In this document: positions 3,993-62,869 of the stretch, in pieces
How positions within the stretch are numbered: the stretch's first letter is position 1
Layout of the letters: each line of letters begins with the position of its first letter
Assembly (NCBI GenBank): GCA_051313645.2
Contig: JBNRSN020000007.1
Location: 257,548,001-257,612,000 of the forward strand
Reading direction: 5' to 3'
Length of the DNA: 64,000 bases
From: Centroscyllium fabricii
Taxonomy: Eukaryota
Position numbers and translations under genes: made by a program
The notes under the pieces: generated by a model
Database searches by the model: none
What the model was told of the DNA's origin: nothing
Seen by the model: only the letters and a program-made list of their open reading frames with translations

Positions 3993-4279
3993 AGTTGTGT
4001 CTACTGTCACTCCCACATTTCTTTAAGCCTTTCCTCTGGTCTGGTCATTTTGACACCATCAAAAGTAGAGTATTTCTTGACAGAAATTATGCGCTCTAGT
4101 CTGGTGTTATTATGCTAGCTGTTAAGTTTCTATTAAGCCTTATTTCCATAGACTTCAATGGAAAAGAAAAGTGGGTGTTGAATGCGATCAACCCATTTTG
4201 CACTACTGGCTTTGACCAATTTCACCTCCATCGATTCTACCGAGAGAATTTAACATCTAGCTAAATCAAATGTTTGTAC

Positions 4280-14296: not shown

Positions 14297-14770
14297 GAAA
14301 CACAGAAACACAGAAGATAGGAGCAGGAGTAGGCCATTCAGCCCTTCGAGCCTGCACTGTGTGGTAACCGTTCTACTATACCACTGTACCCTTATGGCTA
14401 ACAATGGGCTGTGCAGATGTTAGGCACAGCCCTGTATACTATGACACTGTTGGGAGCCAGGTCAGCCACACCTCTAACTCCTCCCCCAGGTGAGGTCCGG
14501 TTATAGGTGAGATCTGACCGAGGCTCCTTCATTCCTGTACAGTAGTTCGTCTGGAGAGTAGCTCCGTTCTTAGTAATTAAAAGCCTTTAGTTTCGGTAAC
14601 TACGCGTCGACTCTTTTAATCGAAGATATTGACACTACGTCACACTGCCATTCAATGAGATCATGGTTGATCATCCAAACCCAGCACCCCCCTCCTACCT
14701 CCTCCCCATATCCCCCGACACCCCCCAATTCTAAGAACTATCAATTATCCCACCCTATCCCCGTATAACA
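14297..14770 (-). mobile_element. CR1-tailed SINE fragment split by a solo LTR
   Basis: CR1 3' UTR motif resumes exactly after the LTR (GAGCCTGCACTG|CCATTCAATGAG). Confidence 0.75.
14360..14642 (+). mobile_element. Solo LTR of the Mag-like Gypsy family
   Basis: TGTGGTAA...TTGACACTACGTCA; perfect 5-bp TSD CACTG; shares GGTCAGCCACACC..TAACTCCTCCCC core with the 29247 LTR. Confidence 0.9.
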
Positions 14771-16394: not shown

Positions 16395-16964
16395 CTAATT
16401 TATAAACCAAGGAACCCACCAAATAGGACGGTATTTATATCAATCTTCCAAAAATTAAATAAAAAGCTGTACCCACACCGAAATGTGAGTGAATGAAATG
16501 ACCCTTCCACATAATACCAACTATGATTATTAGAAGCTGACGGAAACTGCTATTAAGGATTTGAAGACATTATTTCTCTTCCGCTTCTATCCATTTTATT
16601 TTGTTCAGTTACATTAGCTAATGCGCATCTACCAATGTTCAATTAAAGAGCCTGCGGCAAAAACATTAATGTGTGGCGGCTTGCCACGGACTTGTGGTCG
16701 AATCGACCGGACTCTTGGACCCTGAAGGCACTGGCCCGAGGCGCGCTACTCTCGCGAGGCCAGTGCCGACGCAAAAACGCTCCGCGCATGCGCACACGCG
16801 CGGACGTGCTTACGTCATTGCCTTGTTACGCAATGATGTAGCCAGCGCTATATTTAGCTGGAAAAGAGCGCGAAAGCAACCACTCTGTAGTTGAAGTCAA
16901 TAAAGCTGTTGTGTTCATGTTAACTGCCTCAGGCATTCTTTCGCCCACCACCAAAACCCAACAT

Positions 16965-16979
16965 TGGTGACCTCGACGT
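16965..16979 (+). promoter_or_regulatory. Primer-binding site complementary to the tRNA-Trp 3' end
   Basis: TGGTGACCTCGACGT versus TGGTGACCCCGACGT expected for vertebrate tRNA-Trp. Confidence 0.85.
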
Positions 16980-17003
16980 TCGAAACGGATTTCGAACCCA
17001 ACG

Positions 17004-20000
17004 ATGGCGGACGCAAGCATAGCCGCGGTCCGGCTGCCTGAGTTCTGGACAAACCAGCCCGAAGCCTGGTTTGCTCAAGCTGAATCCCGGTTCAGGCTGC
17101 ACCGGGTCAACAAAGAGGAAGTGCGATACGACTACCTGGTAACTTCGCTGGGGAGCTCCACGGTGACGGAAGTCTGGGCAGAGCTGCAGAACCCACCTCA
17201 ACAGGGCAAGTATGTACATCTTAAGGCCGCGCTACTTAAAAGGTTCACCGATTCCCAGTACCAGCGCTGCAGTCAGCTCCTGGCCCTGCAAGGCCTCGGT
17301 GACGCTTCACCTTCGCGCCTCCTCTCCCACATGCTCTCGCTCACGGACGAGAATCCCCCGGGTTCCCTCTTCCGCACGCTTTTCATTAACCAACTCCCTT
17401 CCAGCATACGCCCCACCATCGTCGCGTCCGAAATCCGGAGCCTAGCAGACCTAGCCAGCCTGGCCGACAGGCTGATGGACGGGCAACGGGGCCACGACAC
17501 CGCGGCCGCCGCCACGGCGCATCCAGCCGCTCCCACCACGCGGTCGCAAGGACCGGCACCCAGGCCCACACGACCGCCACGTCCCCCAGACCCGCCTAAG
17601 CCAGGGTACTGCTACTACCACACCCGGTTCGGCACCAGGGCACAACGGTGCGCACAACCTTGCACCTTTAGGCCTGCCCTATCACCAGCCCCTACCATGT
17701 CTGTCGGACAGGCCGGTTGCCTCCTATATGTCACGGATGACAAAACCGGATGCCGTTTTCTCTGCGACACCGGGGCCCAGCATAGCATTGTGCCCGCCTC
17801 CGCCCTCGAAATTAAAGCAGGCACGCGGGGCCCGGCGCTCGCCGCGGCCAACGGTTCCGACATCCCGACGTACGGCAACCGCACGGTACAGCTCCAGCTC
17901 GCAGGGCGCTGTTATACGTGGGAATTTCTCACCGCAAAGATACTCTCGCCAATCATCGGCGCAGACTTCCTTTGCGCTCACGGCCTGTTGGTCGACATGC
18001 CCCGGCGCCGCCTCGTGGACATCAACTCCATGACAACCATTCCGGGCGACACGACCCCAGCCCAGCCCGCCAGCTTGACCATACAGTGCCACGCCCGTCC
18101 CACGGACGCCTACTCGACGCTCCTGGCCGCATTCCCGGCCCTCACCAACCCGACCTTCACCGCTAGGGTAGCCAAACATGGGGTAGAGCATTACATTCCC
18201 ACCACCGGCCCACCGGTGCACGCCCACGCCCGCAGGTTAGACCCGGCCAAGTTAGAGGTCGCGCGGAACGAGTTCGCCACTATGGAGCAGCTGGGTATCA
18301 TCCGCCGCTCCAACAGCCCGTGGGCCTCACCGCTCCACATTGCCCCTAAACCCGACGGGGGCTGGCGCCCCTGCGGGGATTACCGTCGCCTCAACGACGC
18401 TACCATGCCCGATCGGTACCCAGTGCCGCACATCCAGGACTTTTCGGCTAGACTGGCCAGGTGCTCAGTCTTCTCCAAAGTCGACCTGGTGCGCGGCTAC
18501 CACCAAGTCCCTGTCCACGCCGACGACATCCCCAAGACCGCGGTCATCACCCCTTTTGGGCTGTTCGAGTTCTTGCGAATGCCTTTCGGCCTTAAAAACG
18601 CCGCGCAGGCATTCCAACGGCTAATGGACTCGGTCCTACGGGATCTGAAGTTCCTGTTTGTCTATCTTGACGACATCCTAGTAGCCAGTTCCTCCAAACG
18701 GGAACACCTCGAGCACCTCAGGGCCCTGTTCACGCGCCTCAGCGAACACGGCCTCATCCTCAACCCCGCCAAGTGCCAGTTCGGTCTCGAACAGATCGAC
18801 TTCCTAGGCCACCGCATAACACAAGCCGGGACCATTCCCCTGCCCAACAAGGTGCAAGCCGTCCAGCAATTTCCCCGGCCCACCACCGTCCGGGGGCTCC
18901 AAGAGTTCCTCGGGATGGTGAACTTCTACAACCGCTTTATCCCCAAAGCGGCATCCCTCATGAGCCCCCTCTACCAAGCCCTCCGCGGGAAGAGCGGGAA
19001 GGATGTGGTCGAATGGACGGCGCAAACCTCCGCCGCCTTCGACTCCACCAAATCGGCACTTGCCGGCGCCACCATGCTCGCACACCCACGGCCCAACGCC
19101 AAGGTGGCACTCACTACTGATGCCTCCGACTACGCGGTCGGGGCTGTGTACGAGCAGTGGGTCGACGGCGCCTGGCAGCCCCTCGCCTTCTTCAGCCGCC
19201 AGCTGCGCCCCCCGGAGGTGAAGTACAGCGCCTTCGACCGCGAGCTCCTTGCCTTGTACCTAGCGGTCCGACATTTTCGCTTTCTGCTGGAGGGTCGGGT
19301 CTTCACCGCGTTTGTGGACCACAAACCCCTCACATTCGGGATGGCCAAGCCAACCGAGCCCTGGTCCGCTAGACAACAGCGCCAGCTCGCGGCCATATCC
19401 GAATTCACCACCGACATACGCCACATCACCGGACGCGACAACGTGGTGGCCGATTGTCTCTCCCGCGCAACCATCAACGCCACTCACCTGGCGGTGGACT
19501 ATGTCAAACTCGCAGCGGACCAGGTCACAGACCCGGACCTGCTCTCCGCGCCCACCACCCTACCCAGCCTGCGCTTGGCCACCGTCGCCTGCGGCCCCGC
19601 CGACACTAACGTCACGTGCGACATAACCCTGCCGCAACCCCGGCCAGTCGTCCCAGCATCGTGGCGCAAGCACATATTCGAGACGCTCCACAACCTCTCC
19701 CACCCCGGCGCCCGCGCATCAATAAAATTGGTAACCAGTCGCTTTATCTGGCGCGGCCTTAGTAAGGATGTGCGTACTTGGGCCAACTCCTGCGTAGCTT
19801 GCCAATGGGCAAAGGTGCATCAGCACACGAAAGCTCCCCTCGGTCAGATCGAAGTTCCCGCACGACGGTTTGATCACATCCATGTGGATATCGTGGGACC
19901 CCTGCCACCGTCACAAGGCAACACCCACTTGCTCACTATCGTGGACCGCACCACTCGATGGCCCGAAGCTATTCCGCTGACTTCCACCACCACTGCGGAC

Positions 20001-20798
20001 ATCGCCAGAGCCTTCATCGCCACATGGGTCGCCCGGTTTGGCGTGCCTTCTGACATCACATCCGACAGAGGGTCACAGTTCACCTCAGCATTATGGTCTG
20101 CCGTCGCGAAGAGCCTGGGGGTGAACTTGCACCACACAACGGCGTACCACCCGCAAGCCAACGGTATGTGTGAACGATTCCACAGATCAATGAAAGCTTC
20201 CCTACGGGCCAGCCTCACAGACAACGCCTGGACTGACCGCCTCCCATGGGTTTTACTTGGTCTCCGATCTGCGGTCAAAGAGGACCTTCATGCATCGGCA
20301 GCGGAGTTGGTCTTCGGACAACCACTGCGTGTACCCGGCGAATTCCTGGCCGCCGCTACGACACCCTGGTCAGCCAACCAGCAGCGCCTCGACTTCACCA
20401 CGTCGGCGCAACAGTTTACACCGGTACCCGTGACCAGGCATGGTGAAACGACTGCGCAGATTCCGCCTAGACTACATCAGGCGCAGTTCGTCTTTGTCCG
20501 CCACGACGCACACCGCGGGCCTCTGCAGCTGCCATACGACGGGCCTTACAAGGTGCTTCAAGCGGGGGACAAATTTTTCAAATTGCAGGTGGGCAGCAGG
20601 ACTGAAACTGTGTCAATTGACAGGCTCAAGCCGGCGCACACTGAGCCCGGCGAGACCACACTAGTTGCCCACCCACCGCCACGTGGTCGACCCGCCGGCC
20701 AACCAGCTCGCCCGACCACAGCTCGCCAGCTGTCTCCAAGCAGGAGCCGATCCGGCCGACTTATCAGACCGCCGCAACGTCTCGTCCATTCCTCCTAG
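17004..20798 (+). CDS. Intact Gag-Pol polyprotein (1264 aa): Gag with CHCC knuckle, protease, RT, RNase H, integrase
   Basis: VRLPEFW..PEAWFAQAE; CYYHTRFGTRAQRCAQPC; LCDTGA; VYLDDIL; TTDASD..VDHKPL..VADCLSR; LHNLSHPG..CVAC; HVDIVGP..SDRGSQF..ERFHR; YDGPY. Confidence 0.96.
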   Translation: MADASIAAVRLPEFWTNQPEAWFAQAESRFRLHRVNKEEVRYDYLVTSLGSSTVTEVWAELQNPPQQGKYVHLKAALLKRFTDSQYQRCSQLLALQGLGDASPSRLLSHMLSLTDENPPGSLFRTLFINQLPSSIRPTIVASEIRSLADLASLADRLMDGQRGHDTAAAATAHPAAPTTRSQGPAPRPTRPPRPPDPPKPGYCYYHTRFGTRAQRCAQPCTFRPALSPAPTMSVGQAGCLLYVTDDKTGCRFLCDTGAQHSIVPASALEIKAGTRGPALAAANGSDIPTYGNRTVQLQLAGRCYTWEFLTAKILSPIIGADFLCAHGLLVDMPRRRLVDINSMTTIPGDTTPAQPASLTIQCHARPTDAYSTLLAAFPALTNPTFTARVAKHGVEHYIPTTGPPVHAHARRLDPAKLEVARNEFATMEQLGIIRRSNSPWASPLHIAPKPDGGWRPCGDYRRLNDATMPDRYPVPHIQDFSARLARCSVFSKVDLVRGYHQVPVHADDIPKTAVITPFGLFEFLRMPFGLKNAAQAFQRLMDSVLRDLKFLFVYLDDILVASSSKREHLEHLRALFTRLSEHGLILNPAKCQFGLEQIDFLGHRITQAGTIPLPNKVQAVQQFPRPTTVRGLQEFLGMVNFYNRFIPKAASLMSPLYQALRGKSGKDVVEWTAQTSAAFDSTKSALAGATMLAHPRPNAKVALTTDASDYAVGAVYEQWVDGAWQPLAFFSRQLRPPEVKYSAFDRELLALYLAVRHFRFLLEGRVFTAFVDHKPLTFGMAKPTEPWSARQQRQLAAISEFTTDIRHITGRDNVVADCLSRATINATHLAVDYVKLAADQVTDPDLLSAPTTLPSLRLATVACGPADTNVTCDITLPQPRPVVPASWRKHIFETLHNLSHPGARASIKLVTSRFIWRGLSKDVRTWANSCVACQWAKVHQHTKAPLGQIEVPARRFDHIHVDIVGPLPPSQGNTHLLTIVDRTTRWPEAIPLTSTTTADIARAFIATWVARFGVPSDITSDRGSQFTSALWSAVAKSLGVNLHHTTAYHPQANGMCERFHRSMKASLRASLTDNAWTDRLPWVLLGLRSAVKEDLHASAAELVFGQPLRVPGEFLAAATTPWSANQQRLDFTTSAQQFTPVPVTRHGETTAQIPPRLHQAQFVFVRHDAHRGPLQLPYDGPYKVLQAGDKFFKLQVGSRTETVSIDRLKPAHTEPGETTLVAHPPPRGRPAGQPARPTTARQLSPSRSRSGRLIRPPQRLVHSS

Positions 20799-21144
20799 TC
20801 GGATTCTGGGGGGAGCTATGTGGCGGCTTGCCACGGACTTGTGGTCGAATCGACCGGACTCTTGGACCCTGAAGGCACTGGCCCGAGGCGCGCTACTCTC
20901 GCGAGGCCAGTGCCGACGCAAAAACGCTCCGCGCATGCGCACACGCGCGGACGTGCTTACGTCATTGCCTTGTTACGCAATGACGTAGCCAGCGCTATAT
21001 TTAGCTGGAAAAGAGCGCGAAAGCAACCACTCTGTAGTTGAAGTCAATAAAGCTGTTGTGTTCATGTTAACTGCCTCAGGCATTCTTTCGCCCGCCACCA
21101 AAACCCAACAAATGTTACATTTCAGGATTTCTGAGAACAATGCC

Positions 21145-28885: not shown

Positions 28886-29508
28886 CTAAACAAAAACAAA
28901 ATTACCTCCTCCCACCCACCAGTGGTCTAGTGGAGCATATGATGTTGCTTTGAGTAAATGCACTTTTTATTTTGGGGGGCTAAGATACAAATAACAAGCT
29001 ATCTTCAGTCCTCATCAACATATCTTCCACTTATGATCCTCGTTTATACATCCCCAATGATTTTAAATTATGTATAATCAACATCCACATACAATCTTAA
29101 TTACCATTACGCACAATGTTTAATCCTCATTCACCCGTATCCCATATTTTCACACCATAAAATTTTCATCCACCATAAACTTGAGTGCTGTATTATTAAT
29201 GTAGGATGCTAAGAAATCCCCATCCATCTTTTAAGTAGTTGGAGACTGTGGTAATCGTGTATTACCACTGTATATAGTTGATGTGCTCACCTTGACATTG
29301 TATGCTAGGCCAGGTCAGCCACACCCCTAACTCCTCCCCTCAGGTCGGAGCATATAGTTGAGGGCTGCCCTGCCCCCGCTCACTCTTGCCTTGAACTCGA
29401 CAAGAGACTAGCTCCATTGTAAGTGAATAAAAGCCTATAGTTTGGGTAACTACTCGTCTTTTGCGTCTGATTGACGATACGTCAATTTTATTCATTTAAT
29501 TTTAAAAC

Positions 29509-32500
29509 ATGGAGAGTAACGCAGTGAAACCGGATCGCCTCAACATAAATCCTCAGGCGCCCGATGCTGCTAACAACTTCGAACACTGGTTCGGCCTGGT
29601 CGAGGCATACATGAAGGCCGTAAAGGCTACGCCTGATGAGAACAAACTCCAGGTACTCTCATCACGGATCAGCGGCCGGGTGTATTCCTTTATCCGCGGC
29701 CTCAAGACGTACGGGGAAGTGGTTAAGAAACTAAAGGACTACTACATGCGCCCGGCCCACTCGGTCTATGCCAGGCATGTTCTGGCGACCAGACGACAAC
29801 GACTCGGTGAGTCCAACGAACAGTTCCTACTAGCGCTTCAAGCCCTCGCACGGGCCTGCGACTGCCAGGCAAGAAGAAGCGAACCTCCTAATCTGCGATG
29901 CCCATGTGGCTGGACTCAGGTCCAGCCAGGCCCGCCAGCGGCTGCTGGAGCAGGACACACTGTCGCTCGAGTCCGCAATAACTCTTCCTAATGCGGTGGA
30001 CCGAGCGCTCCGAAAGCTGGAGGCGTATGGAGACCACGGCCCACACGATACCCGACCCCTGGGCGACACGGCGACTGGCCGAGACCCCCACGATGGCAGC
30101 GGCGGCTGCGAAGACACCGGCGGGGCACAGATGCTACTTCTGCGGCCAAGGGAAGCACCCGCGGGCGCAGTGCCCCGCGAGGAACGCGACCTGCGAGCGG
30201 TGCGTGAAGAAAGGGCACTACGCGAAGGTGTGCAAGTCCAGCCCAGCCTCCACCTCCAGACCCAACAGCGCGGCCTATGAGAACAGCGATGCCACTCCAT
30301 GGCTCCGGGAACGGTGTTGCTGCGTGACCCAGCAGCGGTCAGCCGGGGGTAAATCGCGGGCGCCTCAATCCCCTTTAACTATACGGTGGAGGCTGGCCGC
30401 GTGCACGGCACAGGCGCTGCCACTCCAAACGCGACCATGCCGGCCATGTGCGACCCCCCCGGCACCGCCATCTTATCGACAGCAGCCGGCCATATGCGAC
30501 CCCCTGGCGCCGCCATCTTGTCCACCGCGGTCGGCCGCATGCGAACCACGGGCGGCGCCATCTTATCCTCAGCGGTCGGCCATGTGCGACCCCCCGGCGC
30601 TGCCATCTTGTCCACCGCGGTCGGCCGCGTGTGAACCACAGGCGCCGCCATCTTGTCCACCGCGGTCAGTCGCGTGCGAACCACGGGCGCCATCTTATCC
30701 ACAGCGGTCGGCCGCGTGCGAACCACAGGCGCTGCCATCTTGTCCACAACAGCCAGACACAAGCGCATCGCCAGCGCCGCCATCTTCGGAGTGGCCATCT
30801 TGCCAACTGCCCCGGCAGGGGCCCCAGCTAGCGGAGGGCTCCCACTCACACACATACACTTTGGCCTCAGCCACTGTCGATCAGGCTAGGCCGCACACCT
30901 TGTCCAACTCCATGATCGGGATTAAGGTGGACGGGCACGTCACTAACTGCCTGTTCGACACCGGTAGCACAGAGCGCTTTATACATTCCGACACAGTGCG
31001 GCGCTACGCACTGCAGCCCACGCACAACCAAGTCTCCCTTGCCTCAAAGTCCCACAAGGCGGACGTCACCGGCTACTGCAGCGTCACACTCACGATCAGG
31101 GACTGCATTTACCGCAACTTTAAGTTGTACGTACTCCAGCAGCTGTGCGCCCCAGTCTTACTGGGACTGGATTTCCAGTGTCACCTGAAGAGCGTGACGA
31201 TGGATTTCGGTGGAACCCTGACCCCCCTCACCGTCAGCAGTCGGGACAATCCCAACTTAACGCGAAGCTCGACTTGCGGCCTGTCCACATTAAAAGTCGA
31301 CCCACCCTCACTGTTCACCAATCTCAACCCCAAATGCAAGCCCATTGCTACCAAAAGTCGGCGTTACAGTGCAGGGGACCGGACGTTCATCAGGTCGGAG
31401 GTCGAGCGCATGCTGAAAGAAGGGATCATTGAGGCCAGCACCAGCCCCTGGCGGGCCCAGGTCGTAGTGGTTAACACGGGCGAGAAACTGCGCATGGTCA
31501 TCGACTATAGCCAGACGATTAACCGCTACACCGGGCTCGACGCCTACCCCCTCACCTGCATCTCGGATATGGTAAACCAGATTGCCCAGTATAAAGGTCT
31601 TTTCCACAATCGACCTCAAGTCGGCGTATCACCAACTCCCCATCCGGAAAGCTGACTGCCAGTACCGCGCCTTCGAGGCGAACGGCCGGCTCTACCACTT
31701 CCTCCGGGTCCCCTTCGGTGTGACCAATGGGGTGTCGGTGTTCCAGAGGGAGATGGACCGCATGTTTGACCAGAACAGGTTGCAGGCCACCTTCCCCTAC
31801 TTGGACAACATGACCATCTGCGGCCATGACCAGCAGGACCACGATGCCAAGCTCGCCAAATTCCTGCACACGGCGAAACGGCTGGACCTCACGTACAATA
31901 AAGACAAGTGTGTCTTTAGTACAGATCAGCTCGCTATCCTCGGATACGTGGTGGAAAACGGGGTCCTCGGCCCTGACCAACAGCGTATGCGCCACTTGCA
32001 AGAGCTGCCCTTACCTCACAACCCCAAAGCCCTGAGGAGATGTCTAGGGTTCTTTTCGTATTACGCGCAATGGGTCCCCCAGTACGCTGATAAGGCCAGA
32101 CCTCTCCTCGAGGCCGACGTCTTCCCCCTCTCGGAAGAAGCCCAAACAGCATTCACTTGGATCAAGGAAGAAGCCCAAATGGCGTTCGCCCTCATTAAGG
32201 AAGATATTATCAAGGCGACCATGCACGCCGTTGATGAGTCCATCCCTTTCCAGGTGGAGAGTGATGCTTCGGACTTCCCCCTTGCCACCACCCTGAACCA
32301 GGCAGGCAGGGCTGTAGCGTTTTTCTCACGGACCCTACAGGGACCCGAAACTCGCCACTCAGCAGTGGAAAAGGAGGCCCAGGCCATCGTGGAGGCAGTG
32401 CGCTACTGGCATCATTACCTGGCCGGTAAGCGTTTTACCCTGCTCACTGACCAACGGTCGGTGGTGTTTATATTTAATAATAAACAACGGGGTAAGATCA

Positions 32501-33747
32501 AGAATGATAAGATCCTGCGGTGGCGGATCGAACTCTCGACTTACGAGTATGACATTCTTTACCGTCCAGGCAAACTCAACGAACCCCCGGACGCACTGTC
32601 CAGGGGAACATGCGCCAGCGCCCAGCTTGACCGGCTGAAGGTCCTCCATGATCGCCTTTGCCACCCGGGTGTCACCAGACTCGCCCACTTCGTCAAATCC
32701 CGTAGCCTCTCCTACTCCATCACGGAGATAAAGGCTATGAACAAGGAGTGCCCTGTCTGCGCCGAGTGCAAACCCCAATTCTACAGGCCAGACATGGCGC
32801 ACGTCATCAAGGCCACCCGCCCCTTTGAACGCCTGAGCGTGGACTTCAAAGGCCCCCTCCCCTCCACTGACCGCAACTCGTATTTCCTCACGGTCATAGA
32901 CGAGTTCTCACGCTTCCCCTTTGCCTTCCCCTGCTCAGACATGACGAGCGCAACGGTGATCAAACACTTCACCATGCTGTTCGCCATTTTCGGTCTCCCC
33001 AGCTACATCCATAGCGACCGGGGGTCGTCGTTCATGAGCGACGAGCTGCGTCAGTTTCTGCTTCAGAAAGTGGTTGCCTCAAGCAGAACGACCAGTTACA
33101 ACCCCCGGGGGAACGGCCAGGTAGAAAGGGAAAACGGGACCATCTGGAAGGCGGTCAACCTGGGCCTGAAGTCCAGAGGCCTTCCAGTTTCCAGTTGGCA
33201 TGAGGTCCTCCCCGACGCACTCCATGCCATTCGCACTCTGTTGTGTACCGCTACTAACTCAACACCTCATGACCTGTTATTTTCCTTCCCCAGGAAGTCG
33301 ACTTCGGGGACAGCACTGCCGCTGTGGCTCACAGCGCAGGGGCCGGTGTTGCTTAGGAAACACGTCCGCGGCCCCAAGACCGAACCCCTGGTGGAACGGG
33401 TGCACCTGCTCCACGCCAACCCGCAGTCTGCTTACGTGACATTCCCGGACGGGCGCGAGGATACAGTCTCGATCAGGGACCTGGCGCCCGCCGGGAGCAC
33501 TAAGGCAGGACCCCCGGTCGAGCCTCAGCCCGACCAGCCACCACCCACCGAATACTGGCCCCCATACATACACACACCGGGGCCCTCAACACCACCGATC
33601 AACGACCTGGGACCGGACACCGCACCGCCGGCACCGTTGGCGGAGAGCCCGATCCCGGCCCTGCAACCGGCCCCACCGCCATTACCAGCACCCCGGCGGT
33701 CCTCCAGGCAGACGCGACCGCCGGCGAGACTAATAGCGCAATGCTGA
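29509..33747 (+). pseudogene. gag-pol of E1 with frameshifts
   Basis: Gag MESNAVKPDRL..., two CCHC knuckles CYFCGQGKHPRAQC/CERCVKKGHYAKVC, LFDTGS protease, YLDN RT, ESDASD RNase H, HHCC and DDE integrase. Confidence 0.93.
30440..30803 (+). repeat. 45-bp coding tandem repeat in the gag-protease linker (~8 units)
   Basis: GCCATCTT recurs at ~30467, 30512, 30557, 30602, 30647, 30689, 30734, 30779; encodes PPSCPPRSAACEPRA-like units. Confidence 0.9.
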
Positions 33748-34300
33748 TTGCGTATAATGGACATATTGAATTTTTTTTTCTCCTCTCTCTTCCTCTCACC
33801 AGAAGGCACGTTCACCCCGCCGGACTTGTTTTTAAATAAGGGGTGAATGTGGTAATCGTGTATTACCATTGTATATAGTGATGTGCTCACCTTGACATTG
33901 TATGATAGGCCAGGTCAGCCACACCCCTAACTCCTCCCCTCAGGTCGAAGCATATAGGTGAGGGCTGCCCTGCCCCCGCTCACTCTCGCCTTGAACTCGA
34001 CAGGAGACTAGCTCCATTGTAAGTGAATAAAAGCCTATAGTTTGGGTAACTACTCGTCTTTTGCGTTTGATTGACGATACGTCAGTGACACAACAAGATT
34101 TATCCCTAATCATCAACCTGGTATCTTATTAATGATTTTGGAAGACCTCATACCATACTGTATCAACACTCATTGGAAGGCATCGTTCTCATTTAAGATT
34201 TTTCCAGGTAGAATTATACAGCAGAAGAGAATTATACAGCAGAAGAAATTATACCGCATTACTCACTCTTAATTTAATCAAACTCCAGTTTTGAAGAGCT

Positions 34301-40725: not shown

Positions 40726-41012
40726 TGACGTATCGTCAATGAATCAAAGATGAGAAGTTACCTTAACTGGAGGCTTTTATTCACTTTACAAAGGAGCTAC
40801 TCTCCAGTCGAACATTGGGTACAGAATGGATGGGGGCAGGTCAGACCTCACCTATAAGGTGCTCACCTGAGGGGAGGAGTTAGAGGTGTGGCTGACCTGA
40901 CCTGACCTCGCGACAGTGTCGCAATACAAAACTATGTACAATGCACCCAGCCACTATACATGCTGGTTTATAGTGTGCTCAACTATTTACACTGGTAATT
41001 ACGATTACCACA
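40726..41012 (-). mobile_element. Solo LTR of the Mag-like family (E3 subtype)
   Basis: TGACGTATCGTCAA...TTACCACA on +; perfect TSD GTTCT; similar to 56012-56293. Confidence 0.93.
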
Positions 41013-49960: not shown

Positions 49961-50248
49961 TGACGTATCGTCAATAATCTTAATGAAACTAAAGACGAGT
50001 AGTGACCTTAACTAGAGGCTTTTATTGACTTACAACGGAGCTATACTCCGAACGAACAACAGGTACAGAATGAACGGGGTCCGGTCAGTCCCCACCTATA
50101 AGGGCCTCACCTGAGGGAGGAGTTAGAGGTGTGGCTGACCTGACCCCACGACAGTGTCGCAACACATCATGCACCCGACCGCTATACATACTGATAATAT
50201 TGGCAACAATATTACGGTGGTAATTACAGTATATATACGGTTACCACG
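49961..50248 (-). mobile_element. Solo LTR of the Mag-like family
   Basis: TGACGTATCGTCAA...TTACCACG on +; perfect TSD GGCAT. Confidence 0.92.
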
Positions 50249-51857: not shown

Positions 51858-54800
51858 TGACGTATCGTCAATTAAGGCACAAAGACGAATAGCTACCTCA
51901 ACTAAAGGCTTTTATTAACTATAGAATGGAGCGTGTCTCAGCTGAGCTCGGGTCTGTACTGACCGGGTGATGGTAGGCAATTACCTATATACCTGGACGC
52001 AGGGGAGGAGTCAGAGGTGGGTCAGCTGAGGCAGGCTCCTGTGTACAGATATCTACATATGTACAGTGGTGCATTATGGTACCATTACAGTGGTACAATA
52101 CAGTGGTGAAATACAGGTTTACCACATTCACCCCTTCTTTAAAAATGAGTCCGGCAGGGTGAAGATGCATTAACACAGTTGGCAATTTAACATTCTGTGA
52201 TCAGTCTCTCGGGTGGCCGTGTCTGCTGAGGGACCGACGGGGTGCCGGTGATGGTGGTTCTGGTCGCGGGGTCGGGGTCATGTCGTCCGCCAATGGTGGC
52301 AGCGGTGCGATGTCCGACCTCTGTTCGTCGGCCGTTGATGTCGAGGGCCCCGGTGTGTGTGTGTGTATGGGGGCCAGTGTTCGGTGGGTGGTGGGTGGTG
52401 GAGCTGAGGCTCAACCGGGGGTTCCGTGATCGTGGTCCCGGCGGGCGCCAGGTCCCTGATTGAGACTCTGTCTTCGCGCCCATCCGGGTATGCCACGTAT
52501 GCATATTGCGGGTTGGCGTGGAGGTGTACCCGTTCCACCAGGGGGTCCGTCTTGTGGCCGCAGATGTGCTTCCTAAGCAAGACTGGCCCCGGGGTGGTCA
52601 GCCACAGCAGGAGCGCTGTCCCCGAAGTAGATTTCCTGGGGAAGGAAAACAATTGTTTGGGAGGTGTAGCATTGATAGCGGTACACAGCAGAGAGCGGAT
52701 GGAATGGAGCACATCGGGGAGGACCTGCTGCCAACGGGATACTGGAAGGCCTCTGAACTTCAGGGTCAGGGTGACCGCCCTCCAGATCGTCCCGTTCTCC
52801 CTTTCTACCTGGCCGTTCCCCCGGGGGTTGTAACTGGTCGTTCTGCTCGAGGCAATCGCCTTCTGGAGCAGAAACTGACGCAGTTCGACGCTCATGAAAG
52901 ACGACCCCCGGTCGCTGTGGATGTAGCTGGGGAGACGGAAAATGGCGAACAGCGTGGAGAAGTGTTTGAGCACTGTTGCACTCGTCATATCTGGCCAGGG
53001 GAAGACAAAGGGGAAGCGGGAGAACTCGTCGATGACCGTGAGGAAATACGAGTTGCGGTCAGTGGAGGAGAGGGGGCCTTTGAAGTCCACACTCAGGCGC
53101 TCGAAGGGGCGGATTGCCATGATGATGTGCGCCCTGTCTGGCCTGTAAAATTGGGGTTTGCATTCAGCGCAGACAGGGCACTCTTTAGTCATAGCCTTGA
53201 TCTCCGAGACGGACTAGGGGTGGCTACGGGACTTCACAAAGTGGGCGTGTCTGGTGACACCCGGGTGGCAGAGGCGATCGTGGAGGTCCTGCAGCCGGTC
53301 AAGCTGGGCACTGGCGCACGTTCCCCTGGACAATGCGTCCAGGGGCTCGTTGAGCTTACCTGGCCGGTAAAGAATGTCATACTCGTAAGTCGAGAGCTCG
53401 ATCCGCCACCGAATGATCTTATCATTCTTAATTTTACCCCACTGTTTAGTGTTAAACATAAACGCCACCGACCATTGGTCGATGAGCAGGGTAAATCTCT
53501 TACCGGCCGGGTAGTGGCGCCAGTAGCGCACTGCCTCCACAATAGCCTGGGCCTCCTTTTCAACTGCGGAGTGGCGAATTTCGGGTCCCTGTAGAGTCCA
53601 GGAAAAGAACGCTGCGGGTCTGCCCGCCTGGTTGAGGGTGGCGGTGAGGGCAAAGTCCAATGCGTCGCTTTCCACCTGGAAGGGGATGGACTCATCAACG
53701 GCGTGCATGGTCACCTTGATGATGTCTTCCTTGATCTGGGCGAATGCCGTTTGGGCTTCTGCCGAGAGTGGGAAGACGTCGGTCTTGGAGAGTTCTGGCT
53801 TCATCCACATACTGGGGAACCCATTGTGCTTAATAGGAGAAAAACCCCAGGCATCTCTTCAGGGCTTTGAGATTGTGGGGTAAGGGCAGCTCCTGCAGGG
53901 GACGCATACGTTGGGGATCGGGGCCGAGGACCCCGTTTTCCACCACGTAGCTGAGGATGGTGAGCCGGTCCATACTAAAGACGCACTTGTCCTTATTATA
54001 CGTCAGGTTCAACCGCTTGGCCGTGTGAAAGAATTTGGCGAGGTTGGCATCGTGGTCCTGCTGGTCATGGCCACAGATGGTCACGTTGTCCAGGTAGGGG
54101 AAAGTGGCCTGCAACTCGTTTTGGTCAACCATCCGGTCCATCTCCCGTTGGAAGACTGACACTCTGTTGGTCACGCCGAAGGGGACTCGGAGGAAGTGGT
54201 AGAGCCGGCCATTCGCCTCGAAGGCGGTATACCAGCGGTCGGAAGTCCGGATGGGGAGCTGCTGATACGCCGACTTGAGGTCAATCGTGGAGAAGACCTT
54301 GTACGGGGCGATCTGGTTCACCATATCCGAGATGCGGGGGAGTGGGTAGGCGTCGAGCCCGGTGTAGCGGTTAATCGTCTGGCTATATTCTATGACCATG
54401 TGCAGCTTCTCGCCTGTCTTAACCACCACGACCTGGGCCCTCCAGGGGCTGGTGCTGGCCTCAATGATCCCTTCCTCTAGCAGGCTCTCGACCTCCGACC
54501 TGATAAATGCCCAGTCCCCTGCACTGAACCGCCGACTTTTGGTTGCTCCGTCCACCGCATTAGACAGCGTGATAGCGGACTCAAGCGATAGAGTCTCTTC
54601 TTCCAGCAGCCGCTGTCGGGCCTGGCTGGACCCGAGTCCGGCTACATATGCATCGCGGACCAGGAGATTGGCCCTTTCCTCGGCCGTCATTGCCTTGATG
54701 TCGCAGGCCCGTACGAGGGTTTGGAGCGCTAACAAAAATTCTTCGTTTGACTCACCCAGCCATTGCCTTCTGGTTGCCAATATGTGTCTGGCGTAAACCG

Positions 54801-56011: not shown

Positions 56012-59000
56012 TGACGTATCGTCAATGAAGCAAAGACGAGTAGTTACCTTAACGAGAGGCTTTTATTCACTTTACAATGGAGCTACTCTCCAGTCGAACA
56101 TTGAGTACAGAATGAATGGGGGCAGGTCAGACCCCACCTATAAGGCACTCACCTGAGGGGAGGAGTTAGAGGTGTGGCTGACCTGACCTCGCGACAGTGT
56201 CCTTATACAAAACTATGTACAATGCACCCAGCCACTATACATGCTGGTCTGTAGTGTGCTCAACTATTTACACTGGTACTCATGATTACCACATTCACCC
56301 CTTCTTTGAAAATTGAGTCCGGCGGGGTGAATGGACAGAACCTGTTAATGCAGGGAAGGAAGAAAAAAATATGTTTGCATATTATTGTATGAGTCAAGCT
56401 CAACAGTTCACAATAAGTCTCTCCGGCGGTCGTGTCTGCCTTGAGGACCACCGGGGTTCTGGTAGTGGTGCTGGTGCCGGTAGTGGTGGTGGGGTCGGGT
56501 CATCCGGCAGCTGTGCCTGTGGTGTGGCGTCTGGTTCTTGGTCCTCGGCTGGTAGTGTCGGGGGCCCCGGTGTGTGCGTGTGCATAGGCCAAGATCCGGT
56601 GGGTCGTAGTTGGTGTGTAGGCCAGTAGTCGGTAGGCAGTGGCTCGTCGGGCTGAGGCTCGACCAGAGGCTCTGCTGTGGTGCTCCCGGCAGGCGCTAGG
56701 TCCCTGATGGAGACTGTGTCCTCGCGCCCGTCCGGGAACTGCACGTAGGCGTACTGCGGGTTGGCGTGCAGCAGCTGCACCTTTTCCACCAGGGGGGTCG
56801 GTCTTATGGCCGCGGACATGTTTTCTAAGTAAGACATCCCCGGCATCGTGAGCCACGGTGGGAGTGCTGTCCCCGAAGTCGACTTCCTGGGGAATGAAAA
56901 GAGCAATTCGTGAGGTGTGGCATTGGTAGCCGTACACTGCAGAGAGCGGATGGAGTGGAGTGCGCCTGGGAGGACTGCCTGCCAATGGGACACTGGAAGG
57001 CCTCTGGACTTCAGAGCCAGGCTGACCGCCTTCCAGATGATCCCGTTCTCCCTTTCTACCTGGCCGTTCCCCCGGGGGTTGTAACTGGTCGTTCTGCTTG
57101 AGGCAACCCCTTTCTGAAGCAGAAACTGACGCAGTTCGTCGCTCATGAATGACGACCCCTGGTCGCTATGGATGTAGCTGGGGAGACCGAAAATTGGTGA
57201 ACAGCATGGTGAAGTGTTTGATCACCGTTGCGCTCGTCATATCTGGCCAGGGGAAGGCAAAGGGGAAGCGGGAGAACTCGTCTATGACCGTGAGGAAGTA
57301 CGAGTTGCGGTCGGCGGAGGGGAGGGGGCCTTTGAAGTCCACGCTTAGACGTTCAAAGGGGCGGGTGGCCTTGATGAGGTGTGTCGTGTCTGGCCTGTAA
57401 AATTGGGGTTTGCACTCGGCGCAAACAGGGCACTCTCGGGTCATAGCCTTGATCTCCGTGATGGAGTAGGGGAGGCTACGAGATTTAATGAAATGGGCAA
57501 GTCTGGTGATACCCGGGTGGCAGAGGCGATCGTTGAGTTCCTTCAGCCGGTCTGGCTGGGCACTGGTGCACGTTCCCCTGGACAGTGCATCCGGGGGTTC
57601 ATTGAGTTTGCCTGGTCGGTAAAGAATGTCATACTCGTAAGTCGAGAGCTCGATCCACCACCGCAGGATCTTATCATTCTTGATTTTACCCTTTTGTTTA
57701 TTGTTAAACATAAACGCGACCGACCGTTGGTCGGTGAGCAGGGTAAAATGCTTACCGGCCAGGTAATGACGCCCGTAGCGCACGGCCTCCATGATGGCCT
57801 GGGCCTCCTTTTCCACTGCAGAGTGGCGAGTTTCGGGTCCCTGTAGGGTGCGGGAGGAAAATGCTACGGGCCTGCCTGCCTGATTCAGGGTGGCGGCAAG
57901 GGCAAAGTCCGAAGCATCACTCTCCACTTGGAAAGGGATGGATTCATCAACGGCGTGCATGGTCACCTTGATAATATCTTCCTTGATCCGGGCGAATGCC
58001 GTGTGGGCTTCTACCGAGAGGGGAAAGACGGCAGCCTTGAGGAGCGGTCTGGCCTTATCCGCGAACTGGGGAACCTATTGCACGTAATAGGAGAAAAATC
58101 CCAGACATCTCTTCAGGGCTTTGGGGTTGTGAGGTAAGGGCAGTTCCTGTAAGGGGCGCATACGCTGTGGGTCGGGGCCAAGGTCCCCGTTTTCCACTAC
58201 GAATCCGAGGATGGCGACCCGATCTGTACTAAAGACGCACTTGTCTTTATTGTACGTGAGATCGAGCCATTTCGCCGTTTGGAGGAATTTGGCGAGGTTG
58301 GCATCGTGGTCCTGCTGGTCATGGCCACAGATTGTCACGTGGTCCAGGTAGGGGAAAGTGGCCTGCAACCCGTTCTGGTCAACCATACGGTCCATCTCCC
58401 TCTGGAATACCGACACTCTGTTGGTCACGCCGAAGGGGACCCGGAGGAAGTGGTAGAGCCGACCGTTCGCCTCGAAACCGGTCGGCTTTCCGGTTCGGGA
58501 GTTGGTGCGACTTAAGGTCGATTGTGGAGAACACCTTATACTGGGCGATCTGGTTAACCATTTCCGAGATGCGGGGAAGGGGATAGGCGTCGAGCCCGGT
58601 GTAGCGGTTAATGGTCTGGCTGTAGTCGATCACCATCCGCAGTTTCTCACCAGTCTTAACCACTACGACCTGGGCGCGCCAGGGGCTGGTGCTGGCTTCA
58701 ATTATCCCCTCCTGCAGCATACGCCCGACCTCCGACCTGATAAATGTCCGATCCCCTGCACTGTAACGCCGACTCTTGGCAGCAATGGGTTTGCAGTTGG
58801 GGTCGAGGTTGGCCAACAGCGAGGGGGGGTCGACTTTCAGGGTGGATAGGCCGCAAGTCGGGCTCCGCTTTAGAAAGGGATTGTCCCGGCTACTGACGGC
58901 GAGTGGGGGCAGGGTCCCGCCGAACTCCATTGTCACGCTCTTCAGGTGGCACTGGAAATCCAGTCCCAGTAAGACTGGGGCGCACAACTGGTAGAGTATG

Positions 59001-60868
59001 TACAGTTTAAAATTACGGTACACGTAGTCCCTAACTGTGTGCATGACGGAGCAGTAGCCAGTGATGTCCGCCGTGTGGGACTTTGAAGCGAGGGAGATTT
59101 GTTAGTGCATGGGCAGGGTCTGCAGTCCGTAGCGCCGCACTGTGTCAGGATGAATGAAGCTCTCTGTGCTTCCGGTGTCGAACAAGCAGTTGTTGATATG
59201 GCCGTTAACTTTAATCCCCATCATGGAATTTGATAGGGTGTGCGGCCTAGCCTGGTCGACCGTGGCTGAGGCCGAAGTGTGTGTGCGTGTGTGGGGGCCC
59301 TCCGCTAGCTGGGGCCGTGCACAAGATGGCGGCGCCCGTGACTCGCACGCAGCCGACCGCGGTGGACAAGATGGCGGCGCCGGGGGGGTCGCACATGGCT
59401 GGCCGCTGAAGACAAGATGGCGGCGCCGGGGAGCCGCACATGGCTGGCCGCTGAAGACAAGATGGCGGCGCCCGTGATACGAACGCAGCGGGCCGCTGTG
59501 GACGTGGTGGCGGTGCCCGTGGTTTGCACGCGGCGGGCGAGTTGGCGTCGCCCGTGATTCGCATGCAGCGGGCCGCGCTGGGCGAGATGCCGGCGTTGGG
59601 GGGGTTGCCCATGGCCGGCCGCGGCCGTCTTTGGTGTGGTGGCGCCCGTACCGTGTGCGCGGCTGGCCTCTGCCGTATCAGGGTGGGGGACGGGGGCGCT
59701 TGTAATCTACCCCCGGACCGCTGCTGGGTCGCGCTGCAACTGCAGCTTACCTGAGGCCATGGGATGGCGTTGGAGCTCTCGCAGGCTGCGCTGTTGTGTC
59801 TGGAGCTGGGCGCTGGGGCCGATTTGCAGGCCCTGGCGTAATGTCCCTTTTTACTGCATTTCTCGCAGGTCGCGGTCCTCGCGGGGCATTTCACTCGCGG
59901 ATGTAGTCCCTGGCCGCAGAAGTAGCATCTTTTATCCGCCGGTGTCTTCGCAGCTGCCGCTGCCGTTGTGGGGGTCTCGACCGGTTGTGGGGCCGCCCAG
60001 GAGTCGAGGGTTGCTTGTGGGCCTTGGCCGCTATACGCCTCTAGTCTGTGGCGTGCTCCATCCACCGCGTTAGAGATGGAGATCGCCTCTTCCAGCGATA
60101 AGGTCTCTTTCTCCAGCAATCGCTGGCGGGCCTGGCCGGACCTGATCCCCGTCACGTAGGTGTCCCGAACGAGAAGATTCGTCTCCTCCTGCGCTGTCCG
60201 TGCCTGGCAGTCACAGGCCCAGGCGAGGGCTTGGAGCGCCAACAGATATTGTTCATTGGACTCACCGATCCGTTGTTGTCTGGTCGGCAGCACATGTCTG
60301 GCGTAGACCGAGTGCACCGGGCGCACGTAGCATGCCTTCAGTTTCTCTACGGCCTCTTTGTATGTTTTTGCGTCGCGGATGAAGGAGTATACCCGGCTGG
60401 AGATCCTGGACGAGAGAACGTGGAGTTTGTTCCCGTCGGTCATCGCCTTGGCGGCCTCCATGTAGGCCTCGACGAGGCTGAACCAATGTTCAAACGTATT
60501 GGCGGCGTCTGGATCCTGTGGACTGACATCCAGCTTTTTGGGTTTCACAGCGCCGCTCTCCATTTTAAATTTAAAGTGAATAAAATTGACGTATCGTCAA
60601 TGAAGCAAAGACGAGTAGTTACCTTAACTAGAGGCTATTATTCAATTTACAATGGAGCTACTCTCCAGTCGAACATTGAGTACAGAATGAATGGGGGCAG
60701 GTCAGACCCCACCTATAAGGCACTCACCTGAGGGGAGGAGTTAGAGGAGTGGCTGACCTGACCTCGCGACAGTGTCGTTATACAAAACTATGTACAATGC
60801 ACCCAGCCACTATACATGCTGGTCTGTAGTGTGCTCAACTATTTACACTGGTAATCATGATTACCACA
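56012..60868 (-). mobile_element. Full-length Gypsy element E3 (Mag-like family)
   Basis: 282-bp LTRs 60587-60868 (5') and 56012-56293 (3'); perfect TSD GTATT; PPT AAAGAAGGGGTGAA. Confidence 0.96.
56400..60563 (-). pseudogene. gag-pol of E3 with several frameshifts/stops
   Basis: MESGAVKPKKL..., CYFCGQGLHPRVKC/CEKCSKKGHYARAC, LFDTGS, YLDH, ESDASD, integrase. Confidence 0.92.
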
Positions 60869-60924
60869 GTATTAATGTATAATGTTGTAGTTTTGCTATC
60901 GCTGCTGTTTCTGCTTTGTTTCCC

Positions 60925-62452
60925 CAGTGCATGTACCCATGTGTCCTGAAGACCCACTCCGTTCCCGGTTCAATATCGCCAGTGCCCGTGTGTCCTGAAG
61001 GCCCGCTCCGTTCCTGAGTCAATATCGCCTTTGTCTGTGTGTCCTGAAGGCCCGCTCCGTTCCTGAGCCTATATCGCCAGTGCCAGTGTGTCCTGAAGGC
61101 CCGCTCCGTTCCTGAGTCAATATCGCCTTTGTCTGTGTGTCCTGAAGGCCCGCTCCGTTCCTGAGCCTATATCGCCAGTGCCAGTGTGTCCCGAAGGCCC
61201 GCTCTGTTCCCAGTTCAATATCACCAGTGCCTGTGTCCCGAAGGCCCGCTCTGTTCCTTGGCCAATATCGCCAGTGCCCATGTGTCCTGAAGGCCCGCTC
61301 CGTTCCCAGTTCAATATCGCCAGTGTCTGTGTGTCCTGAAGGCCCGCTCCGTTCCTGGGTCAATGTCGCCAGTGTCCGTGTGTTCGAAAGGCCTGCTCCG
61401 TTCCTGGGTCAATATCAAGTTCAAGTTTATTGTCACTTGTACTAAATACAATCTAGACAGTGAAATGCTTACTGCTACCCGAACGCAACTCGCAACAAGG
61501 ACATTAAGCTGCCCGGCACGCACGAGCCCGCAAGACGTCAGCCATTCTCTGGTGCCATCATCGTGGGCCCCTTTCCTGCTCCGGCCTCTCAGTACGCTGT
61601 TAATTGTCCTCTACCGCTCCTTAACTTGCTCTGCTGCTGTTCCTTCCGATGCTACTCTTGACCTGACTCCTTTCAGCCCGACACCATGCCGGCTCCCCCG
61701 AATCCACGGATTTCTGAACTTCAGGAGCAGCATCCTGAGGCCTGGCTCTCGTCCAGGCGCCATCCCGGCTCCCCCGAGCTACGAACTCCGGGCCAGAGGC
61801 CTGGGGCCTAGTCCAGCACCCGCCGGCTGCCCCGAGCTCCGAACTTCGGGCCGGAGCCCTGGGGCCTAGTCCAGCATCCTCCGCTCCCTCCGAACTCCGG
61901 GCCTGTGGCCGAGCCAGTACTCTCCGACTCCCCCGAAACCTGGGGCCTAGCACTCTGCCCGGCAACATCCTGGATCTCCCCGAGTCCTCCGAGCTCCCAG
62001 CTCTCACTCCCGTCGGCCGATTGGCGCCCCGATCCTGGGTCAATATCGCCAGTGTCCCAAAGGCCTGCTCCGTTCCCGGTTCAATATCGCCAGTGTCTGT
62101 GTGTCCCGAGGACCCGCTCCGTTCCTGGGTCAATATCGCCAGTGTCCGTGTGTTCTGAAGGCCCGCTCCGTTTCCAGTTCAATATCTCCAATGTCCGTGT
62201 GTCCCGAAGACCCGCTCCGTTCCTGGGTCAATATCGCCAGTGTCTGTGTGATCCGAAGACCCGCTCCGTTCCTGGGTCAATATCGCCAGTGGCCGTGTGT
62301 TCTGAAGGCCCGTTCTGTTTCCAGTTCAATATCGCCAGTGGCCGTGTGTTCTGAAAGCCCGCTCCGTTCCCGGGTCAATATCGCCAGTGGCCGTGTGTTC
62401 TGAAAGCCCGCTCCGTTCCCGGGTCAATATCGCCAGTGGCCGTGTGTCCCTA
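60925..62452. repeat. 49-bp minisatellite array (~18-19 units) interrupted by a retroposon
   Basis: Unit GGCCCGCTCCGTTCCTGGGTCAATATCGCCAGTGTCCGTGTGTCCTGAA; local 98-bp dimer at ~61000-61195. Confidence 0.93.
61417..62032 (-). mobile_element. Non-autonomous non-LTR retroposon (616 bp) with a 15-bp TSD
   Basis: Tail GTGACAATAAACTTGAACTT on -; TCCTGGGTCAATATC duplicated at 61402-61416 and 62033-62047; homologous to 1-516. Confidence 0.85.
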
Positions 62453-62869
62453 AGCTAACAATCAAATAAACACAGACTGTGCATGCACAACTACTTAAAC
62501 TTAGTTAACAGCAGTCACTGCCTTAAGTGAAAGTAAAAAAGTTAATGTAAAATAACAGACAGGGAAATGTTATACAAACATATTTAGCTTTTGCTCACTA
62601 ATATCAATAACTGTCATTTCAAAGCTTACAAAACAGGTACAAAATTTAAGCAGAAACACTATCAATAAACAATTAGAGGATCAGAGTGTATCTGGATTTA
62701 CATGAAGGCCCATCTTTCCCCTCGTTTGAGAATGGTTTGGCTCCCGAGTGCTACCAAGCGAAAGAAAATGACTACCAAGTAGTTCCTGTTTCTCTTCAAA
62801 TTAACGTGGTCCCCAGCATAATGTGACAGTCAAAATTCTCAGCTGCCTTGGAAAATGCATTTAAATAAG

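Follow-up and report, generated by a model that had tools for sequence, protein, structure and literature searches.

Members of a Ty3/gypsy clade in Centroscyllium fabricii carry a primer-binding site complementary to their own LTR, suggesting minus-strand self-priming

Introduction

How does an LTR retrotransposon begin minus-strand synthesis when the position that would accept a tRNA primer is complementary to the element's own LTR instead? The question is raised by three related elements, E1, E2 and E3, in a 64,000-nt stretch of Centroscyllium fabricii DNA (contig JBNRSN020000007.1, positions 257,548,001 to 257,612,000; hereafter the window, with all coordinates counted from its first base). 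The initial annotation of the window described, directly after the 5′ LTR of each, an AT-rich tract that is the reverse complement of the poly(A)-signal segment of the same element's LTR, and read it as a candidate system of self-priming or poly(A) occlusion.

Both readings have precedents. HIV-1-type retroviral leaders fold a poly(A)-occluding hairpin over AAUAAA near the 5′ end. The Tf1 element primes with the first 11 nt of its own RNA after an RNase H cut (PMC7175516, PMC4600332, PMC5341516), and the available portions of the literature describe self-priming for Tf1, Tf2 and Tj1, for sushi-type and fungal elements, and for the plant lineages Tcn1 and TAR (PMC6317226, PMC4600332, PMC5341516, PMC6934838). 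According to the literature found, the mechanism is proven for Tf1 and is predicted elsewhere, in chromovirus kin and in the two plant lineages; for Tcn1 (gypsy) and TAR (copia) the prediction rests on complementarity to the 5′ LTR over 10 bp or more, as stated in the accessible text (PMC6317226). The consulted parts of the literature, including PMC3601003, PMC13524379, PMC10680173 and PMC8556966, mention neither self-priming in the clade of E1-E3 nor an internal primer; an earlier note, e.g. in Repbase or GyDB, is possible.

Results

E1 spans 29247-34084 on the forward strand and is delimited by an LTR pair, a polypurine tract (33828-33847) and a 5-bp target-site duplication (29242-29246 / 34085-34089) that matches at 4/5 positions. 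Its 5′ LTR (29247-29484) begins with TG and ends in CA, and its 3′ LTR occupies 33848-34084. The gag-pol region (29509-33747, with the ATG at 29509) encodes a double zinc knuckle, PR, RT, RH and IN, lacks a chromodomain and is split into three overlapping frames (29506-29991, 29982-31655 and 31576-33747); the RT active-site motif at 31798-31809 reads YLDN instead of YxDD. The other two elements lie on the reverse strand: E2 (55345-51858; LTRs at 55345-55077 and 51858-52126) has an internal deletion that fuses gag to RT, and E3 (60868-56012; LTRs at 60868-60587 and 56012-56293) has a coding region in several broken frames. The LTR pairs measure 238/237, 269/269 and 282/282 nt in E1, E2 and E3, with 7, 9 and 6 mismatches, and the target-site duplications of E2 and E3 match at 5/5 positions. 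With TG...CA LTRs, target-site duplications, a polypurine tract and the domain order PR-RT-RH-IN, E1-E3 are Ty3/gypsy elements; they are genuine insertions, and all three are broken copies. Solo LTRs of the same clade, each with a 5-bp target-site duplication, lie at 14360-14642 (forward strand), 40726-41012 and 49961-50248 (both reverse strand). Two tandem repeats were seen alongside: a 45-nt repeat at 30455-30776, in frame in E1 between Gag and protease and encoding a proline-/cysteine-rich repeat, and a 49-nt repeat in two arrays at 60843-62543, adjoining the 5′ end of E3.

The window also supplies a tRNA-type control. E0 (16672-21110) is a young CsRn1-like element with a TGG site, a 4-bp target-site duplication, LTRs identical at 290/292 positions, a CHCC-type Gag motif and a single frame of 1,275 codons. 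The tRNA-Trp site and CHCC Gag motif described for the CsRn1 clade in the available text (PMC2582038) fit E0 and are absent from E1-E3.

All six leader and LTR stretches named by the initial annotation were found where it had placed them, and no TGG follows the LTR-CA in any of the three elements. In E1, a one-base spacer A and the self-complementary site occupy 29485-29498; the leader at 29486-29498 pairs with 29420-29432 through 12 Watson-Crick pairs and one G-U. This partner overlaps AATAAA and would lie in R, where it would form the 3′ part of the candidate primer with a predicted cut after 29432; a second copy is present in the 3′ LTR at 34020-34032. The sites of E2 (55075-55062) and E3 (60585-60572) match the partners in their 3′ LTRs (51923-51910 and 56074-56061, respectively) at 14/14 positions each, and the partners in their 5′ LTRs (55142-55129 and 60649-60636) carry one private change in E2 and two in E3. 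Shuffling each element's own LTR gave an equally good leader match in 0/5,000 shuffles for each of E1, E2 and E3. The G-U of E1 replaces a G-C pair that is kept in 50/51 families and, as most copies of the E1 family do not have this G-U, it is decay of a single copy.

We sampled the clade with Gag, whole-element and junction queries against the host genome and added 80 metagenome loci; an LTR pair was found for 113/386 Gag starts. Because anchoring on the motif favours pairing, the unbiased test was confined to 99 distinct two-LTR copies whose LTR ends had been fixed from the alignment and the target-site duplication. In 69 of these copies the leader's best 12-base match to the 3′ LTR was 12, and in another 17 it was 11 (at least 11 in 86/99); shuffled LTRs reached 11/12 in 3/2,970 cases and 12/12 never, figures whose significance is overstated because the families are related by descent, and 3′ flanks reached 11 in 1/99. 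The 13 low scorers, judged by eye, are mostly copies in which the script had misplaced the LTR end. No correctly placed end carries TGG, the 2/99 matches both being misplaced ends inside ATG. A motif-anchored pass yielded 254 distinct copies with at least 10/13 pairs, and removal of 13 rows that were spurious or out of register left 241 copies in 51 families, 32 from the host genome and 19 from metagenomes. When 33 misses of an earlier pass were inspected, most had indel-disrupted LTRs, mutated CA ends or a short U5.

Across the 51 families, the 663 pairs at positions 1-13 comprise 646 Watson-Crick, 2 G-U and 15 mismatched ones, compared with 460 ± 9 Watson-Crick pairs when sites are dealt among families. 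Pairing fades past position 13-14 (position 14 is paired in 38/51 families, position 15 in 21/51), and compensated changes, scored over 25 disjoint pairs of neighbouring families, account for 62/78 changes at positions 1-13 versus 1/112 at positions 17-22. The covariation that had been noticed between E2 and E3 thus extends across all 51 families. When 46 natural copies, selected to have 12/13 pairs or more, were aligned with MAFFT, the covariation score was 0.524, as opposed to 0.142 for shuffled and at most 0.078 for slid controls. Within families, 11/12 variants common to both LTRs are compensated in the site, and variants found in the site only (12/1,130 cells) are about as frequent as decay in one LTR (23 in twice as many bases). 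G-U pairs make up 2 of the 648 site pairs versus 96/645 pairs in predicted inner helices of the same RNAs. These comparisons of sequence confirm that the self-pairing site is real and conserved across the clade.

The register of the helix is as constant as its pairing. The spacer A between the LTR CA and the site is present in 48/50 families, the site begins two bases past the CA in nearly all, and between the partner's end and that of the LTR there are 20-67 nt. A occupies positions 1-3, and G occupies position 10 in 50/51 families. This G holds its place in partners with three terminal A's as well as in those with four, so the reference point of the register is the primer end, not the hexamer. 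GCCT directly follows the partner in 34/50 families, with near variants in most of the others; in E1 a GCCT-type motif at 29433-29447, adjoining the predicted cut on its 3′ side, opens a second stem on folding. The predicted pairing probability of this post-cut stem is 0.64 versus 0.38 for shuffled sequences, with 41/51 families above their shuffles. Two other structures were rejected as conserved features, namely a U5-end hairpin as in Tf1 (0.36 versus 0.36 shuffled, 51 families) and an extension of the pairing over the gag AUG (mean z about -0.5 to -1.1), which E1-type families are able to form. A search of Rfam with the leader returned no match above chance. In L125/L244, L248 and L238 a partner position has different letters in the two LTRs of the same copy; both letters are common in related families, which hints at recombination or conversion between subfamilies.

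Where the partner lies relative to the RNA 5′ end can be judged from promoter motifs. In E1, the TATA-like box CATATAG at 29351-29357 predicts a transcription start at about 29381-29382, inside an initiator-like motif (29380-29385). A TATA-like box lies 80-88 nt upstream of the partner's last base in 22/32 host families and at the Tf1-type, cap-proximal distance in 0/32; 0/19 metagenome families have a TATA at the host distance. Sushi-like chromoviruses of the same genome served as a control: in 7/9 of them an 11-nt partner begins exactly 30 nt after the first T of the TATA, and their partners sit 122-220 nt before the LTR end. By this TATA spacing, the host-family partner would be internal to R, unlike that of Tf1, in line with the earlier suggestion that it lies ~40 nt downstream of the start and not at the cap. 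The nine control elements (L434, L436, L437, L442, L443, L447, L448, L451 and L452) show textbook Tf1 geometry, with compensated changes between families. Seven metagenome elements without a TATA (L046, L049, L057, L083, L086, L096 and L110) have a pyrimidine tract ending in CAG ~30-75 nt before the partner end, which by eye resembles a splice or trans-splice acceptor located within the LTR.

We then tested the prediction that, if the primer reaches upstream past the helix and is at times copied into DNA, an LTR end should occasionally run into an inverted copy of its own LTR and not into the leader. The inverted junction motif of E1's family occurs at 32 loci in the genome, a control pattern at 0 and normal junctions at 4,264, so that inverted junctions amount to ~0.75% of normal ones in this family. 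We read 20/32 of these loci (L467-L486), and in all 20 the last A of the partner is the switch point, in exact register. Short inverted arms of 24-73 nt were read at nine loci: unrelated DNA interrupts five of them, and four jump elsewhere in the element after 30, 41, 43 and 42-51 nt, lengths that the predicted capped fragment of ~51 nt would accommodate. Nine arms reach the U3 start, and 14/20 exceed 51 nt. In L476 and L480 the arm passes the polypurine tract and ~44-61 nt of internal sequence, while the left arm lacks these and goes from TG into non-element flank; L471 is a palindrome with two U3 ends. L471 and L476 each have a 5-bp target-site duplication and are therefore integrase products. 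Chromosomal fold-back as the source of the footprint was rejected, as L470, L471, L476 and L480, which have long arms and a complete left LTR, never enter inverted flank. The arm of L472 ends at the predicted transcription start, but a 10-nt microhomology blurs its end point and we give it little weight. Left and inverted arms differ at 7/77 polymorphic sites versus 18/210 in normal LTR pairs, i.e. no difference, and the corresponding search in sushi-like elements gave 0/66 with ~0.5 expected, too small a sample to serve as a control. As read from these genomic junctions, the pairing is used during reverse transcription; as to which RNA primes, the arms fit any of three routes, a copied 5′ fragment with fold-back, a copied RNA 3′ end, or mispriming by the plus-strand tail.

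The clade itself is large. A first-look search of the 7.2 Gb genome returned more than 300,000 Gag N-terminus candidates, which is not a copy number. Among named proteins the nearest, with 67-76% identity across RT-RH, belong to sharks and rays, followed by those of corals, sea anemones, Trichuris and Trichinella; no relative was found in viral contigs, and a protein search with the Gag N-terminus scored nothing. Chromo and SH3_Tf2-1 gave no Pfam match in E1-E3 or in four full-length relatives, while the sushi-like controls match both. In quick trees the RT forms its own clade (SH-aLRT 100) on a long branch, apart from the host chromoviruses and CsRn1-like rows. Mag-lineage Gypsy elements have a short single-ORF layout and a Gag double zinc knuckle, both of which the clade of E1-E3 shares, with its RT on a branch of its own; in the quick trees this RT is also separate from the host rows that, going by a motif, we labelled Mag-like. 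A catalogue name for the clade was not found in the accessible literature, where candidates would be e.g. a MolGy clade or Cigr-1 (PMC6238403).

Discussion

We propose that the minus-strand primer of these elements is an internally cut, capped 5′ R fragment of ~51 nt derived from the element's own RNA, a reading to which we assign a probability of roughly 55%; that they self-prime in some form is highly probable. The observed starting point is a site after LTR-CA-A that lacks TGG and is, in fixed register, the reverse complement of an LTR segment. Going by the promoter motifs, transcription in host families would start ~50-55 nt before the 3′ end of this segment and place it inside R. Folding predicts a local helix between the site and the 5′ R segment, with the second stem opening directly after this segment. 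By analogy with Tf1, the element's RNase H would then cut at AAA^GCC and leave a capped fragment of ~51 nt with its 3′-OH on the site, and the 15-25 nt of R left downstream of the cut would serve strand transfer. Plus-strand synthesis would subsequently copy ~13 nt of the primer and so rewrite the site from the LTR in each cycle, which we propose as the reason why the border is sharp, G-U pairs are all but lacking and compensation is fast. The inverted-LTR insertions would come from over-copying or from the plus-strand tail folding back. We favour the 5′ R fragment as primer because the 5′ copy folds locally and because the template-switching arms stop within ~51 nt.

Published work on related elements bears on this model. 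In the available text on Ty3 RT the two active sites are ~13 bp apart and the thumb and RNase H ~10 bp apart (PMC5371799), and cuts are placed at 11-13 nt (PMC11363490). By analogy, the spacings of 13 and 10 bp match the helix length and the position-10 G-C, a match that may be coincidental. As for rewriting of the site, about half of Tf1 cDNA is described as keeping a DNA copy of the primer (PMC11042837, available in part); in the accessible text on Ty1 and Ty3 the primer-binding site is not inherited from the primer (PMC5371799), and the rewriting step is therefore not general. Strict selection could produce the compensation instead.

The primer could also be the 3′ end of the RNA, which is unlikely in our estimate: the 3′ copy of R would pair with the site, a cut after AAUAAA(A) would remove the tail, and the genome would be circularised at initiation. 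Covariation and fixed register are equally expected under such priming, and the long inverted arms speak for it, in that 11/20 lie at the U3 start or beyond and those of L476, L480 and L471 are explained in a single step; with a 5′ fragment as primer, long arms need a second step, fold-back or mispriming, and with the 3′ end none. Local folding, however, should favour the 5′ copy, which is ~50 nt away from the site; the short template-switching arms end within 51 nt; and long arms of the same kind would arise if a plus-strand tail misprimed on a co-packaged RNA at its free 3′ R. The proportions of differing sites in the arms (7/77 versus 18/210) fit both models. Were the 3′ end of a circularised genome indeed the primer, which we doubt, it would constitute a third way of minus-strand priming besides tRNAs and cap-proximal self-priming, with the palindromic and polypurine-tract-containing insertions as its by-products.

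It is quite improbable that the helix is solely regulatory, hiding the 5′ poly(A) signal or aiding packaging or translation while another primer is used. AATAAA or ATTAAA does lie inside the partner in 30/32 host and 10/19 metagenome family representatives, only the 5′ copy is able to pair in cis, and in families of the E1 type the pairing may run on over the gag AUG. The helix is nevertheless kept without a hexamer in 9/19 metagenome representatives, among them L033 with a free AATAAA downstream; its register begins exactly two bases past the LTR CA in nearly all families (spacer A in 48/50), with no alternative primer site seen; a helix with a regulatory role should tolerate G-U, which is found in 2/648 pairs; and the AUG extension is not conserved. 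Since those 9/19 partners lack a hexamer, poly(A) masking is not the general purpose of the pairing. This part of the initial annotation finds no support as a general role, given that the helix persists without the signal in a register set by the primer end; masking is secondary at most, and in our preferred model of a 5′ R fragment it would be a side benefit where the hexamer overlaps. The difference from the HIV-1 hairpin is twofold, in that the strand covering the signal here is the primer-binding position and in that the helix persists without the hexamer.

The plain Tf1 mechanism, in which a second downstream start or RNA processing such as splicing at an AG would put the partner at the RNA 5′ end, strikes us as slightly less plausible still. 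Cap-proximal self-priming does occur in the same genome, by the evidence of the sushi-like elements, and an AG at positions 11-10 is common, with pyrimidines upstream; against this, 0/32 host families have a TATA at the Tf1 distance. Splicing at the AG was rejected, as the helix still pairs and covaries at positions 12-13, upstream of the AG, and 10/51 families have T at position 11. Priming by a host tRNA, half-tRNA or small RNA, with the LTR match incidental, is scarcely credible: tRNA priming is the default for LTR elements, and our search of the host yielded 14 tRNA loci of one type, too few to screen the host set, yet correctly placed ends carry no TGG and the site changes in step with its own LTR even among young copies of one family.

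Compared with known systems, the clade resembles Tf1 and Tf2 of Schizosaccharomyces pombe, Tj1 and the Tf1/sushi chromoviruses in having no tRNA site and own-LTR complementarity of the same polarity, and, as in Tf1, RNase H is predicted to cleave an RNA-RNA helix on its LTR-proximal side. It differs from Tf1 in that the partner lies, by TATA spacing, ~40 nt inside R and not in the first 11 nt, and in that the helix is 13-14 bp long as opposed to 11, and from the sushi-like controls in that the partner ends 20-67 nt from the LTR end, on the poly(A) signal, instead of 122-220 nt. Chromo and SH3_Tf2-1 matches are absent, the RT sits on a separate long branch, and YxDN replaces YxDD. To judge by these features, priming in this clade would work like Tf1 self-priming, yet the clade is outside the Tf1/sushi group. 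The AU test does not reject chromoviruses as the sister group (p 0.13), and an independent origin of self-priming is therefore not established. Plant Tcn1 and TAR, for which the prediction uses the same criterion, belong to another superfamily or clade and to other hosts, and self-priming is hence not confined to one clade.

If our reading is correct, self-priming operates in a very large clade without a chromodomain, with relatives in sharks, rays, corals, sea anemones and parasitic nematodes, and the primer is excised from within the RNA. Host control via tRNA fragments would have no hold on such elements, and annotation that requires a tRNA site would miss them. The 13-bp register, the position-10 G-C and the AAA^GCC junction are exact predictions for Gypsy RNase H acting on RNA-RNA duplexes, and inverted-LTR insertions are aberrant cDNAs preserved in the genome that can be used as a readout of the priming mechanism.

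A second peculiarity open to test is the naturally occurring YxDN active site. According to the available text, the same change in Ty1 RT (D211N) keeps polymerase activity in vitro and abolishes transposition unless RNase H suppressors are present (PMC2148107). In the present clade YxDN stands in place of YxDD in 93/113 scored relatives, including copies with identical LTRs, and the YxDD rows are scattered within the clade in a quick tree.
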